Below, in pieces: positions 5,822 to 16,050 of a stretch of 21,426 nucleotides of DNA. The stretch is from positions 1-21,426 of the IMG/VR virus record IMGVR_UViG_3300013121_000012. One strand, written 5' to 3'. The position numbers and the translations under genes are program-made. The notes under the pieces were generated by a model that did not search any database, was not told the DNA's origin, and saw nothing but the letters and a program-made list of their open reading frames with translations. Origin of the DNA: a virus. Its lineage: Duplodnaviria; Heunggongvirae; Uroviricota; Caudoviricetes. Within the stretch, counting starts at the first letter, position 1, and each line of letters begins with the position of its first letter.

Positions 5822-5850
5822 TTTACAAGTTTTCACTTGAGTGTTATAAT
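5822..5850 (+). promoter_or_regulatory. sigma70-like (early) promoter with extended -10
   Basis: TTTACA (5822-5827), 17-nt spacer, TGn plus TATAAT (5845-5850); lies just after a terminator and upstream of the ATPase gene. Confidence 0.85.
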
Positions 5851-5923
5851 AAAGCACTTCCCGAAAAGCAGACGACAGTGTGAGAGCTGAGTCCGCTAAT
5901 CAAGAGTTCGGGTTTGGGGGATT

Positions 5924-6904
5924 ATGGCAAAAAACATGAAAGCGCTTAACGAGCTCCTCTCGAAAGAGAAAGGGTTCAAAGCTATCAAGCGCGACTATTC
6001 AAAAAGCGGCTTTGAGTACAACATCACTGTTGGAAAAGAGATTTTCACAATCGAATTTCGCAATCCAGTCGAACAGCTTTATGATGAAGCTAAAAGCCTC
6101 GGAATCAAAGGCCTTGTTGAAAAGTATCCAGTTGGATGCTTCTCAAAAAAGTCATCGGGTTCTGCGGAACTGACTGACGAGAACGATGAAGATCTGCTTC
6201 CTCCTGAGGAAGTCGACATCGTAAAGCAATTCCAAGCATTAACTTGCTTTGTTGAAATGCTCTTCGATCGTGCGAATCCAATTCAATCGATCGTTGTGTC
6301 TGGTCCTGGTGGAGTAGGCAAAACCTACGAAATCTTCGACGAGATGGAAAAGCGTGGTGTCGAATATACCCTCGTTAAGGGTTACTCTTCACCTCGTGCT
6401 CTGTTCAATACTCTTCGCGATCACTCAGAAGAAGTGGTTATCTTTGATGACTGCGACTCAATCTGGGAAGATGCTAACGCATTGAACATCCTCAAGTCTG
6501 CTCTCGAGACCAACCGTAAAGGTAAGCGTACCGTTACTTGGAACCTCGCTGAGGAAAACGAGGAATTCGAGTTCCACGGTAAAATCATCTTTGTGTCGAA
6601 CAAAGACTTCTACGCATCGCGTAGCAAAATGAAGCACATCATTGCGGTCCTTACCCGTGTGTTCTTCATCCAGTTCACATTCGACCAAGAACAAATGATG
6701 CGCCGCATCGAAATGGTGTCTGGCAACATTGAGAAAGATGCAGCAGTTCGCACTGCCGTCATCGACTATCTCAAAGCCAACGCTAAGCGTTCTAAGGTGT
6801 CGATTCGCATGTTCGAAAACCTCTGCAAAGTGTACAAATCACTTGGCAAAGTAAAGTTCGAGCTCTGCGGTACCGAACTTCTTCGAGCAGGAAGATTGGG
6901 ATAA
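5924..6904 (+). CDS. P-loop (AAA+-type) ATPase, 326 aa
   Basis: Walker A GPGGVGKT, Walker B VVIFDDCD, sensor-like IIFVSN. Confidence 0.88.
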   Translation: MAKNMKALNELLSKEKGFKAIKRDYSKSGFEYNITVGKEIFTIEFRNPVEQLYDEAKSLGIKGLVEKYPVGCFSKKSSGSAELTDENDEDLLPPEEVDIVKQFQALTCFVEMLFDRANPIQSIVVSGPGGVGKTYEIFDEMEKRGVEYTLVKGYSSPRALFNTLRDHSEEVVIFDDCDSIWEDANALNILKSALETNRKGKRTVTWNLAEENEEFEFHGKIIFVSNKDFYASRSKMKHIIAVLTRVFFIQFTFDQEQMMRRIEMVSGNIEKDAAVRTAVIDYLKANAKRSKVSIRMFENLCKVYKSLGKVKFELCGTELLRAGRLG

Positions 6905-6913
6905 GATCTTCTT

Positions 6914-6972
6914 TGCATAATCTATATTTAATTAGTTGGCTCCGGCCATCTAACCTAAATATAGATTATGCA
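6914..6972 (+). promoter_or_regulatory. Long hairpin sequestering the endonuclease start codon and containing a late-promoter-like TAAATA
   Basis: Perfect 17-bp inverted repeat TGCATAATCTATATTTA (6914-6930) / TAAATATAGATTATGCA (6956-6972), with inner stems TTAG/CTAA and TGGC-tccg-GCCA; ATG at 6968 is inside the right arm. Confidence 0.85.
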
Positions 6973-7627
6973 TATCTACAAAACAACGAATCTTATTAAT
7001 GGCATAATTTATGTAGGCCAAAACAAAAATAACAATAAATATTATCTCGGGAGTGGAGATAAAATTAGAGCAGCCATTAAAAAATATGGCAAAGAAAACT
7101 TTAAGAAGGAAATTCTTGAGGAATGCAAAAATTTAGAAACTCTTAATGAAAGAGAAATTTATTGGATCGATAAATTAAAAGCGACCGATAAGTCTATTGG
7201 TTATAATATCGATCCGGGTGGCTCAGATCCTCAAAGATTTGGAGATCTCAATGGAATGTTTGGAAGAAAACATTCCAGAGAAACCAAAGAAAAAATGAGG
7301 CAAAAAGCCATTGGTAGAAAGGCATCGAGAGAATCTCGAAAAAAAATGAGTGATTCTAGAAAAGGAAAGTCTGCATGGAACAAAGGAGTTCCTATAACTG
7401 AAGAAACACGAGCAAAGATTTCTGAGGCCTCTAAAAAACAAGTATGTTCTGATGAGACGAGAGAAAAACTAAGACTATCGTCTACGGGAAGGACTCACTC
7501 AGAGGAAACTCGTAATAAACTATCGGCAGTTGCTAAACAAAGAAAATACACTCACGAGGAGCGAGCGAAAATTTCTCGATCCGTCAGATTAGCTCGTCAA
7601 CAAAGATTCTGGAGCACTAAAAAATAG
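6968..7627 (+). CDS. Free-standing GIY-YIG homing endonuclease with NUMOD3 repeats (Seg-like), 219 aa
   Basis: HIYKTTNLINGIIYVGQ, YLGSG, YGKENFKKEILE, NEREIYWI, GYNI catalytic domain; repeated HS.ETR.K(M/I/L)S NUMOD3-type units; A-rich composition distinct from its neighbours. Confidence 0.93.
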   Translation: MHIYKTTNLINGIIYVGQNKNNNKYYLGSGDKIRAAIKKYGKENFKKEILEECKNLETLNEREIYWIDKLKATDKSIGYNIDPGGSDPQRFGDLNGMFGRKHSRETKEKMRQKAIGRKASRESRKKMSDSRKGKSAWNKGVPITEETRAKISEASKKQVCSDETREKLRLSSTGRTHSEETRNKLSAVAKQRKYTHEERAKISRSVRLARQQRFWSTKK

Positions 7628-7700
7628 TCGAAACTCCGGTGGATTCTATGCCACCGTCGAGTCTGTGGGAACTGACCTACCCACACTGATGAGACTGGTC
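7625..7700 (+). ncRNA. Hammerhead ribozyme, type II (stem II open), with a pseudoknot
   Basis: Stem II AGTC 7626-7629 / GACT 7693-7696; GAAA 7630-7633; stem III 7633-7642 / 7651-7662 (2-nt bulge); GTC cleavage triplet 7661-7663; stem I TGTGGG 7664-7669 / CCCACA 7680-7685; core CTGATGA 7686-7692; loop I GACC 7674-7677 pairs with GGTC 7697-7700. Confidence 0.93.
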
Positions 7701-7711
7701 CAAGAGGTAAT

Positions 7712-7927
7712 ATGGTAACTGCGACAATGCAATTTTCAACCGATATGTTCTCATACAACAAAGACACGAGACGCTTCAATCAAGAAGCATCATCACTGGA
7801 ACTTCCCGCTGGCCAATGGCCACTTCGTCTTATCGAATGTATGAAACAAACCGGCGATTGGGAATCTGAAAAGAAAACAATTATCCAAGATTCCGAGTGG
7901 TTATCTAAAGGAGTGGAGGCAGGATGA
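7712..7927 (+). CDS. Hypothetical protein, 71 aa
   Basis: SD GAGGT at 7704-7708; ATGA overlap with the next ORF. Confidence 0.7.
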   Translation: MVTATMQFSTDMFSYNKDTRRFNQEASSLELPAGQWPLRLIECMKQTGDWESEKKTIIQDSEWLSKGVEAG

Positions 7928-8055
7928 TCAGTGTTGAAGCAATAGGCATTGTTCTCGCATTCTTTCTCGCGATAAATAGAAATGATCCGCTTGTATCGTT
8001 TCTTAAAGCCATCTTTTTCGGATGGTTCTATGTTTTTTGGTATATAATAACATAA
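7924..8055 (+). CDS. Small membrane protein, 43 aa (not in the ORF track)
   Basis: MISVEAIGIVLAFFLAINRNDPLVSFLKAIFFGWFYVFWYIIT*; GGAGG SD; two hydrophobic segments; fills the gap exactly. Confidence 0.75.
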   Translation: MISVEAIGIVLAFFLAINRNDPLVSFLKAIFFGWFYVFWYIIT

Positions 8056-8064
8056 GGAAGTATT

Positions 8065-8589
8065 ATGCAAGTTTTGGATATTGTGCCGCAATCAAATTTC
8101 AAACGTTCTATTAAGCGTAACAAACCAACTTGCGTTATCTCAATACGTGATCCATTCGACCGTCGTGGTTTTGGCCATAGCGGAAAGATGTCTCGCCCGC
8201 CATTCATATTTGGTTTGTTGACTATCCCAAAGTTGGCGCTTGTATTCGAAGATGTCAATCATCAGCTCGATGACAATGCGCCAACTAAAGACCACATTCA
8301 GCAGATCATTGATTTTGCAAGAGCGAATCCTGATGGAAAACTGGTTGTGCACTGTTGGGCCGGTCAATGTCGTTCGTCTGCGGCAGCTGCAATTTGCCAG
8401 ATAGCAAATGGGAGAGATCCAAAAGAAACGTTCGAAGATCTGTCAGAAAGATTCCTGCAGATTCATCCGAACCCACTTATGATAGACCACGCTCAAGAAA
8501 TTCTTGGCGGAAACATCCGCGAAGAATACGACAAGATGCGGCCATTGTGGATTTGGCGTTTCGAAAACAGTAATGGAATTTATCATTAA
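8065..8589 (+). CDS. Cys-based protein-tyrosine/dual-specificity phosphatase-like protein, 174 aa
   Basis: VVHCWAGQCRSSA (HCX5R P-loop), upstream FED general-acid loop, downstream PNPLM; SD AAGGAAG. Confidence 0.88.
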   Translation: MQVLDIVPQSNFKRSIKRNKPTCVISIRDPFDRRGFGHSGKMSRPPFIFGLLTIPKLALVFEDVNHQLDDNAPTKDHIQQIIDFARANPDGKLVVHCWAGQCRSSAAAAICQIANGRDPKETFEDLSERFLQIHPNPLMIDHAQEILGGNIREEYDKMRPLWIWRFENSNGIYH

Positions 8590-14322: not shown

Positions 14323-16050
14323 ATGCCTACTAATCCAGAATTAGAAAAAAAGAAGGCCGAAGAACAAGCAATGATGGAACGTTGGTCCATCGCTCTTGAA
14401 GCTGACGGTGGTATCGCGGACGAATATGTAGCACGTCAAACTGCTATCGTTCTAGAAAACTACTGGAAGTTCCTTAAGAAGCACCCAATTCTTATGGCCG
14501 AAGATAAGGTCACTACATCACAATTCAGCGGTGTAAACTTGGCACTTATCGGTGTTATTCGTCGTGTAATCCCAGCAATCGTTGGTCAACAACTTGTTGG
14601 TATGCAAGCGAAACCAACACCAGACTCAAAAGTATTTACAATGGTCCCATCTCGTGGCGATTCAAAGAACAGTGTTCTTGATGGTCAAGAAATCTGGAAC
14701 CACCCAATTCCATCTAAGCCATCCGGTTCAGCGGGAATTCTCGGTGAAGATTTCGGCTACTCATCAAACGTAGTTCAAGAAACGATCAACGTAGGTGCAC
14801 CTACAGTAGCAAACGAACCAGAAGCTTCTGGTGATTTCCAATTTGCAGCCGGTGTTGTCTCAAAAGACTTCTACTGGGCGAAACAAGGTAACAAGCAAAA
14901 AGACGGTATTGCACCACAATACTCACTTATCTTGAACAACACTGTTTCAATGCAAGTAGTCGGTGTCGCTAACGACGCTTACAACGGAAAAATCCTACAA
15001 GCCGTAACTTTCCCAGGATCGTACTACGGTTCAGGTACAATCGCAGCAGTCAACGCAATGACAGCGAAGCTAACTACTCCGCTCACAGCGCTTACAGGTG
15101 CAGTTGTAACTAAGACAGGTTCAACAATCGCAAACGTTCCAACACTCGACTATACGCAACCAGCGTCATTGACAGGTGTTGCAGTTGCCGCAGCTTACCA
15201 AATCGGTGGCCTCGCAACTACAGACGTAGCAATTGTTCTTTCATACGAAGTATCTATGGAAGGAAACGTCAACCAGCCAGAACTTGGTTTGAGAATTGAC
15301 GGTGCCGACACAGGTATTATCAAGCGTATGTTAAGAGGACGTTACACTCTTGATGCAGCGTTCGATATGAACGTGTTGCATGGTATCGATCTCGAAAGCG
15401 AGCTCGTTAACCTAATGAAACTCGATATCACAAACGGTATCAACCGTGAAATCGTTGATGACCTTCGCAAGATGGCCGCAATCAACCAAGTACTCGATTT
15501 TAACGCGTACGTTTCACCAACACCATCTAACGGTACAGTTATCTCTGGTAACTACGAAGATACACACCGTCTACTTCTGGATTCAATCCACCAAGTAGCG
15601 GCAAAGATCTGGAACTTGGGACGTCTAGGTAAAGGCAACTTTGTTGTCGGTAACCCAGTAACTCTCGCGTTCTTGTCTCGCGTTAGTGGATTCTCAGGAT
15701 CTGGAGTTACAGCGAATGCTAGTGGATTAACTTACACTGGTTCTCTCGGTGGTAACCTCAAGTTCTACGAAGATCCACAGTACCCAGCGGGTGAACTATT
15801 GATTGGTTACAAAGGACAAGGCGCTATGGACGCTGGTTACCTCCACTGCCCATATCTCCCAGTCACTGCGACACCAACAATGAACCAAGTAGAAACTGGC
15901 GATCCAATCAAGATTTTCTACACACGTTATGGTAAAACATACCGTGCGTTCAACCCAAAGAATGGTAAAGCGAACGACAACGTTATTTACGCAGGTGAAT
16001 ATCAGTACGCACGCCTTTCACTCAAAAACCTCCCATTGGTTCTTAGCTAA
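14323..16050 (+). CDS. gp23: Major capsid protein (T4 gp23-like), 575 aa
   Basis: TAIVLEN, IRRVIPAIVGQQLVGMQAKPTP, LHGIDLESEL...INREIV, GKGNFVV, LIGYKG...DAGYLHCPYLP and TRYG motifs; biased codon use; strong terminator after. Confidence 0.95.
   Translation: MPTNPELEKKKAEEQAMMERWSIALEADGGIADEYVARQTAIVLENYWKFLKKHPILMAEDKVTTSQFSGVNLALIGVIRRVIPAIVGQQLVGMQAKPTPDSKVFTMVPSRGDSKNSVLDGQEIWNHPIPSKPSGSAGILGEDFGYSSNVVQETINVGAPTVANEPEASGDFQFAAGVVSKDFYWAKQGNKQKDGIAPQYSLILNNTVSMQVVGVANDAYNGKILQAVTFPGSYYGSGTIAAVNAMTAKLTTPLTALTGAVVTKTGSTIANVPTLDYTQPASLTGVAVAAAYQIGGLATTDVAIVLSYEVSMEGNVNQPELGLRIDGADTGIIKRMLRGRYTLDAAFDMNVLHGIDLESELVNLMKLDITNGINREIVDDLRKMAAINQVLDFNAYVSPTPSNGTVISGNYEDTHRLLLDSIHQVAAKIWNLGRLGKGNFVVGNPVTLAFLSRVSGFSGSGVTANASGLTYTGSLGGNLKFYEDPQYPAGELLIGYKGQGAMDAGYLHCPYLPVTATPTMNQVETGDPIKIFYTRYGKTYRAFNPKNGKANDNVIYAGEYQYARLSLKNLPLVLS

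Follow-up and report, generated by a model that had tools for sequence, protein, structure and literature searches.

A complete type II hammerhead ribozyme motif lies between a GIY-YIG homing endonuclease gene and a chimaeric small ORF in the phage DNA analysed here, and comparison with other phage sequences confirms that this motif, at 7626–7700, is a real member of its family. We lean towards the reading that it is an active phage ribozyme of the ordinary family type that splits a multi-gene message, with predicted cleavage after C7663, and that it perhaps cuts more slowly than usual.

The stretch studied (the window) covers positions 1 to 21,426 of a virus record 206,805 nt long. Among its products are a Gp23-type capsid protein, a prohead protease and rIIA/rIIB, and since the best GenBank phage matches of the capsid protein are at most about 30% identical, the phage is an uncultured, distant T4-like one. 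The capsid protein (575 aa, window 14323–16050) matches known phages over about half its length at ~30%, and a long N-terminal-to-middle region has no match. Elsewhere the genome holds a tmRNA gene and 22 tRNA matches (about 54,600–57,200 and 80,200–92,000; L218–L220) and a group I intron match of 55 bits beside an endonuclease-like ORF (179,541–179,780; L225:142–381). No close DNA relative of the ribozyme region was found.

The features of the locus are listed in Table 1. Positions 5822–8035 are likely a single transcription unit made up of promoter, 326-aa ORF, endonuclease, ribozyme, 71-aa ORF and terminator-like hairpin; judged by consensus, the sigma70-like site is the likely start of a read-through message and the terminator-like hairpin its likely end. 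The 326-aa ORF contains the Walker-A-like motif GPGGVGKT. Directly after the terminator, the ORF at window 8065–8589 is tyrosine-phosphatase-like, with an HCWAGQCRS motif and weak Pfam matches. Promoter-like sites on the minus strand across the ribozyme number about what chance would give (8 in the region against 5.5 expected).

Table 1. Features of the ribozyme locus (window coordinates)
Feature	Position	Strand	Basis
Sigma70-type promoter-like site, TTTACA-17-TATAAT	5822..5850	+	consensus match only, 11/12 positions
Upstream ORF, 326 aa, PHROG 1250 (unknown function)	5924..6904	+	PHROG match
Perfect 17-bp inverted repeat round a small inner hairpin (arms 6914-6930, 6956-6972)	6914..6972	+	sequence, fold
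AAATATA-N4-ATG genome-wide motif, in 3' arm of the hairpin	6957..6970	+	motif enrichment
Free-standing GIY-YIG/NUMOD3 homing endonuclease, 219 aa, stop TAG 7625-7627	6968..7627	+	Pfam, PHROG
Last endonuclease codons, pairing in nested order with the ribozyme	7587..7619	+	prediction only
Type II hammerhead ribozyme with loop I/3'-tail pseudoknot	7626..7700	+	sequence, fold, descriptor, held-out model
Predicted cleavage site, 3' of C17 in GUC	7663..7664	+	position in hammerhead consensus
Shine-Dalgarno-like (SD) GAGGT, 3 nt after pseudoknot and 3 nt before ATG	7704..7708	+	sequence
Chimaeric ORF, 71 aa (ORF 7712)	7712..7927	+	protein comparisons
Intrinsic-terminator-like hairpin and T-run	8007..8035	+	consensus match only

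The hammerhead and its relatives

The hammerhead can be read directly from the sequence and is also the minimum-energy fold of 7620–7715; its folding energy alone is unremarkable (z −0.66). Residue numbers below (C3, G5, G12, C17 and so on) follow the standard hammerhead scheme. Three stems surround the core, with the structure open at stem II and loops closing stems I and III: stem II is 7626–7629/7693–7696, stem III is 7633–7642/7651–7662 (10 bp, with a 2-nt bulge at 7657–7658 and an 8-nt loop) and stem I is 7664–7669/7680–7685 (six Watson-Crick pairs). The conserved core is complete, with C3-U4-G5-A6-N7-G8-A9 (here CUGAUGA) at 7686–7692, G12-A13-A14-A15.1 at 7630–7633, of which G12-A13-A14 are 7630–7632, and U16.1-H17 at 7662–7663, within G16.2-U16.1-C17 at 7661–7663. 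Hammerheads are cut 3′ of C17, which would here fall at 7663/7664. An earlier sequence-only reading had described a complete pseudoknotted type II hammerhead cut after C7663, and the core, stems and GUC position bear this out as far as a predicted site can be; the core mutant that it named, G7688A, indeed falls on G5, which is 7688.

The pseudoknot described in that reading is likewise present as complementarity: loop I GACC (7674–7677) can pair with GGUC (7697–7700) in the same register as in relatives, and the pairing ends, as stated there, 3 nt ahead of GAGGT. A type II hammerhead is expected to have at least 4 bp between loop I and tail, and the copy has just these four. A fifth is absent, the base after GGUC being C7701; among 49 relatives that share this loop, 48 carry A or G at this place and so form a fifth pair. 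The statement that stem II uses the TAG stop of the endonuclease gene needs a correction in one base. G7697 either extends stem II (U7625-G7697) or makes the fourth pseudoknot pair, never both, so that with the 4-bp pseudoknot the A and G of the stop are paired in stem II and U7625 is not. The span from G12 to C17, 33 nt against a family median of 19, is matched in length by 7 of 222 members, stem III being both long and bulged. A 4-bp alternative contact between loop I (ACCU) and the SD (AGGU) was considered as a switch and rejected as unsupported; the same contact is found in 14 of 172 family members.

Membership in the family rests on a covariance model. Phage type II hammerheads were gathered by pattern from 6 of the 64 parts of the viral collection (131 loci), and the model was built on 50 of 142 candidates, selected on visual inspection as being similar in length and having a recognisable pseudoknot. 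With the locus copy left out of its construction, the model scores that copy at 56.7 bits (E about 2e-13, by a rough calibration), and its next-best match within the window reaches 10.6 bits. All four helices covary among the 50 sequences, with 16 of 20 pairs changing on both sides, and paired cells make up 93% of the alignment's helix positions against 31–40% in slid controls, a comparison that leans towards the structure because the sequences were selected for having it. The 3′ half of the ribozyme (7664–7700) is identical over 37 nt to the hammerhead of locus L263, which has an unrelated small-gene context. At the cut site, the close relatives of this half (L231, L232 and L263) have GUU or GUA, not GUC. 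A 222-nt contig of another public run equals 7494–7715 letter for letter, which argues against an assembly artefact to the extent that the run is not related to the source sample, as it could be. Among the sequencing runs listed for the region, none was of RNA.

A strict descriptor applied to both strands of the genome returned one match, the locus copy; any match arose in 3 of 30 shuffled genomes and an equally strong one in 1 of 30, in a comparison that left out distal stem III and the pseudoknot. Neither descriptor, Rfam nor covariance model found a second hammerhead elsewhere in the 207-kb genome, and GTDB genomes held no match for this ribozyme subtype. A 17.8-bit model match near genome position 203,040 was set aside, being without G12, and loose descriptor matches in L046, L079 and two genome sites, which are long and AT-rich or overlap tRNAs, were unsupported by the model.

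The Rfam Hammerhead_II scan that had been suggested as a check did not report the locus copy, whether run on the window, the site or the genome; the copy stays under the RF02276 gathering cut-off (37 bits), probably on account of its long, bulged stem III. Among 19 source loci of the family checked as controls, 12 hold RF02276 matches over the cut-off and 7, with clear family members, are missed. Compared with the type II hammerheads of RF02276 and, in the accessible part of that paper, of PMC3088659 (Perreault 2011), the locus copy has the same topology, full core, GUC cut site and pseudoknot position; it differs from RF02276 in going undetected, with its bulged 33-nt stem III region against the median of 19, and from close relatives in having a pseudoknot of 4 rather than 5 bp.

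Gene layout around phage hammerheads

Overlap of the ribozyme with the stop codon and its nearness to the SD had been read as a special device that could couple cleavage to translation on either side. We find instead that stop codon, ribozyme, SD and start codon in this order are the standard layout of the phage type II family. After removal of descriptor scores under 12, same-core duplicates and sequences with too little flank, 158 unique hammerheads were available, 153 of them usable upstream and 152 downstream. A frame of at least 45 codons ends 1–8 nt before G12 in 115 of the 153, with exactly the stop-to-G12 spacing of our locus in 38 of 153, and an SD-led start follows in 125 of the 152, in 12 of them as close as here. 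At random positions a stop falls 1–8 nt before in 75 of 3160 cases (2.4%), and at control positions merely containing a stop triplet the figure is 305 of 2863. The count holds at 107 of 145 after clustering by upstream DNA and at 39 of 42 in a second hammerhead set with the same loop. That GTC precedes GAAAC was fixed in our search pattern; this biases the set towards TAG at spacing 2 but does not explain the long frames. A statement of this stop-codon rule was not found in the literature searched, and the supplementary alignments and gene contexts of PMC3088659, which lie outside the part available, may show such layouts.

Among L086–L216 and L230–L289 the upstream stops peak sharply 2–8 nt before G12, none lies up to 9 nt inside, and the upstream frame almost never overlaps the hammerhead beyond stem II. 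Clustering is frequent, with at least two hammerheads in 26 of 117 scanned loci and up to six in 3 kb (L130); our locus differs from these in having a single copy in a 207-kb T4-like genome.

Bacterial and prophage type II hammerheads are described in PMC3088659, where message processing is proposed in prophages; our locus shares with them the intergenic site between phage genes and the proposed splitting of a multi-gene message. In its accessible text, PMC6765202 describes what ribozymes do in bacteria as largely elusive and mentions the processing of polycistronic messages as one suggestion; for bacterial and phage hammerheads, a function in vivo is unproven. The ‘HHphage’ hammerhead of haloviruses HF1/HF2, as described in PMC3088659, lies like ours a few nt before a phage start codon, where the cut would make the downstream 5′ end; it is a core variant from an archaeal virus with a 5′ end mapped near the site, whereas our core is canonical and known from sequence. 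A further report (bioRxiv 10.1101/2024.05.16.594327), in its accessible part, concerns eukaryotic RNA viruses.

In the message-splitting reading that we favour, RNA from the sigma70-like promoter or from the endonuclease's AAATATA promoter (see below) would be cut a single time, into an upstream piece whose 3′ end is the stem III hairpin with a cyclic phosphate and a downstream piece that begins with a 5′-OH and carries stem I and the pseudoknot immediately before the SD. Structured 5′ ends protect messages from nucleases, and such an end ahead of its SD would make ORF 7712 a separate message with a stability of its own. The ribozyme is likely to cut more slowly or less completely than its typical relatives, as its pseudoknot has 4 pairs and not 5 and upstream codons can compete for the core (see below). 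In the accessible part of PMC3088659, 14 of 18 consensus hammerheads were active, and shortening the pseudoknot of another construct from 6 to 4 bp lowered the rate about 20-fold. The held-out score, the covariation, the 37-nt identity, the generic layout, the absent endonuclease association, the single copy and the chimaeric ORF all count for message splitting. Against it stand the predicted loss of stem II in longer transcripts (see below), the rate lost with a shorter pseudoknot, the chance that the endonuclease travelled with the ribozyme and the unproven role of such hammerheads in vivo.

The endonuclease gene and its last codons

The endonuclease gene is free-standing, as there is no intron family in the window and the flanking ORFs end and start independently. 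Its open frame encodes an N-terminal GIY-YIG domain and C-terminal NUMOD3 repeats, as in Seg-like proteins (NUMOD3 E 1.6e-18; GIY-YIG E 1.6e-4, with a score of 22.3 just under the Pfam cut-off of 22.6; PHROG 314, E 4e-47). Protein P0010 is an orthologue of the same length, 77% identical, that ends at the same codon; no sequence match was found in the PDB, and GTDB genomes gave one weak match only. The genome has three further GIY-YIG frames (41,733–42,491; 117,104–118,009; 149,291–150,052), none with a comparable start hairpin or a downstream ribozyme in the folds examined.

The 17-bp hairpin at the start of the gene is stable (z −6.6; 0 of 200 shuffles fold as well) and is predicted to bury the endonuclease ATG in read-through RNA. 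None of 50 distinct homologue start regions passed as having a comparable hairpin, so it is not a family-wide feature. AAATATA, in its 3′ arm, is the most enriched 7-mer ahead of the genome's ORFs. [AG]AATATA-N4-ATG occurs at 20 genome sites, against 1–10 for other spacings from 0 to 12, and at 19 of these sites the ATG starts an ORF of at least 50 aa. The motif is likely a phage promoter that would give a leaderless message without the hairpin 5′ arm. Four of 16 motif-led proteins scanned match a PHROG, and none a clear structural family. Sites of this kind in the window are at 6957, 17365, 18901 and 19101, and another, at genome 179,448 on the minus strand, stands at the start of the endonuclease-like ORF next to the group I intron. 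On the minus strand of window 6769–6929 the inverted repeat mirrors the promoter motif and ATG, facing the end of the upstream gene with a 50-codon frame; this mirror motif could give an antisense RNA or be a by-product.

Among T4-family homing endonucleases, I-TevI, I-TevII, I-TevIII, SegB and Aeh1 MobE are hairpin-repressed (Edgell, Gibb and Belfort 2010; PMC2988022, accessible part), and control of I-TevI, SegB and MobE combines the hairpin with an internal promoter. Our locus agrees with the cases described there in having a GIY-YIG gene in a longer message with a stable hairpin over its start, and a promoter-like motif so placed that its RNA would be without the hairpin 5′ arm. It differs in that an SD is lacking, that the ATG itself lies within the hairpin and that the short message would have no leader, and in that no self-cleaving ribozyme follows the T4 genes described in that part of the paper. 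The motif here is AAATATA-N4-ATG, and the scan of motif-led proteins gave no structural genes that would mark it as a late promoter.

At its other end, the endonuclease gene offers a possible route to translation dependence different from the stop-codon overlap: in folding predictions its final codons base-pair with the ribozyme, and this pairing could serve as a brake. In nested order, 7587–7599 would pair with core and tail (7687–7700; 13 bp, including 3 G-U, and one bulge), 7604–7609 with the cut site (7659–7664), 7611–7614 with the stem III 5′ strand (7634–7637) and 7616–7619 with stem II (7625–7628). It is possible, and we hold it only tentatively, that the ribozyme is translation-gated and under the control of the endonuclease gene. 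In early read-through RNA, the hairpin would keep the endonuclease untranslated and codons 7587–7619 would hold the ribozyme off; ribosomes on the leaderless AAATATA message would strip these codons away, and the ribozyme would then fire, trim the nuclease message and release ORF 7712. That the endonuclease gene would thus be locked by RNA at both ends, with a natural translation-activated hammerhead at the second, is a modelled picture that we consider doubtful.

What speaks for such gating is that the pairs, about 28 in all (a number equalled by 5 of 400 synonymous recodings), cover every functional part of the ribozyme, and that the duplex with core and tail reaches −16.2 kcal/mol (shuffle p 0.012). 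None of 220 family hammerheads attains this value with the 60 nt upstream of it, although these sequences are richer in G+C than our locus; 2 of the genome's 190 gene ends do, and so do 70 of 2000 synonymous recodings. A nearest-neighbour model with at least 40 nt of upstream context gives stem II a probability of 0.00 and a cost of 6.4–7.3 kcal/mol, and with only 15 nt of context stem II returns to 0.68; the start-codon hairpin, for its part, mirrors the known T4 endonuclease control (PMC2988022, as described in the accessible part). Against this, the significance of the clamp (p about 0.01–0.13) is that of a post hoc observation on a single genome, for which several measures were tried. The ensemble cost is common: 53 of 400 recodings match it, as do 32 of 217 family members, and in short context it lies below the family median. 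A single 30-nt ribosome mask lifts stem II to 0.09 at best, and anti-pairing is not general in the family (5 of 220 members at p≤0.05). The segment 7587–7619 also encodes protein, and P0010, compared at the protein level, keeps 13 of the last 19 residues with R207I and R213K falling in pairing segments. The model itself is a weak predictor, since it takes no account of pseudoknot or core energies and misfolds 179 of 217 family members, giving them stem II under 0.1. In the literature searched, which holds few subscription papers, we found no report of a natural translation-gated hammerhead or of a hammerhead with a phage GIY-YIG gene, and nothing on leaderless endonuclease promoters.

Origin of the ribozyme and its neighbours

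The downstream gene has two sources. Residues 5–41 of ORF 7712 resemble an 85-aa small-protein family (P0008, P0009; P0008 51%, E 4.5e-4), and from residue about 38 (near 7823) its last 35 residues are 91–94% identical to the C-terminus of P0002, a 112-aa protein with a start unrelated to that of ORF 7712. Contigs of runs X1 and X2 also cover the junction. A search of viral contigs found no locus related to ORF 7712, to its ATPase-like and phosphatase-like neighbours upstream and downstream, to P0002 or to the P0008 family, and GenBank phages had no match for P0008; three metagenome matches of P0008 proved spurious on inspection. In the simplest history, a module of ribozyme, SD and small gene likely recombined in with its right junction near 7823, where a resident-type gene was probably joined to the imported 5′ half of ORF 7712. 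The ribozyme's place behind the endonuclease is then likely an accident of that event, and the endonuclease may have travelled together with it.

Such a history would also suit a decaying passenger, which came with a broken gene fragment and is largely inactive and unselected in its present context, an explanation that we think unlikely. The chimaeric ORF, the loss of the fifth pseudoknot pair (C7701; A or G in 48 of 49 relatives), the unusually long and bulged stem III and the predicted inhibition by upstream pairing all fit it. However, the core has kept all its nucleotides and stem I all 6 of its pairs, 37 nt are identical to a relative and the identical sequence is found in another run, with the proviso that intactness is weak evidence, as a recent arrival would look intact too.

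The pairing of ribozyme and endonuclease is rare. Our locus differs from other type II hammerheads in that its upstream gene is a homing endonuclease: the upstream neighbours in the family are unrelated small genes, and 0 of 132 upstream ORFs are endonucleases by Pfam (5 matched any family, and about 50 come from loci with only 300-nt flanks). Conversely, descriptor and model found a hammerhead within about 2.5 kb in 0 of 80 GIY-YIG loci that encode relatives of the endonuclease (37–64% identical, partly redundant). These counts, the three other GIY-YIG genes of the genome, which are without a hammerhead, and the lack of a second instance make it quite improbable that hairpin, promoter, GIY-YIG gene and hammerhead form a fixed cassette or that the endonuclease homes next to conserved hammerhead DNA, even if the 5′ control element is self-contained, P0010 ends at the same codon and homing, as the accessible part of PMC2988022 has it, moves flanking DNA and could explain the ORF 7712 junction. 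A chance match to the consensus or an assembly artefact is extremely unlikely: Rfam's silence and the 1 in 30 shuffled genomes with an equally strong descriptor match are outweighed by the held-out E of about 2e-13, the 37-nt identity, the family-typical position and the second contig, and Rfam likewise passes over 7 of 19 loci that contain clear family members.

As a ribozyme the locus copy is ordinary, since by our estimate about 1300 viral stretches match one narrow pattern of a type known since 2011. The contact with the stop codon, by contrast, is a sharp family-wide rule and bears on what phage hammerheads do. Should the endonuclease codons really hold the ribozyme off, this would be a natural hammerhead gated by translation, with cutting timed to the switch from read-through to endonuclease-specific transcription.
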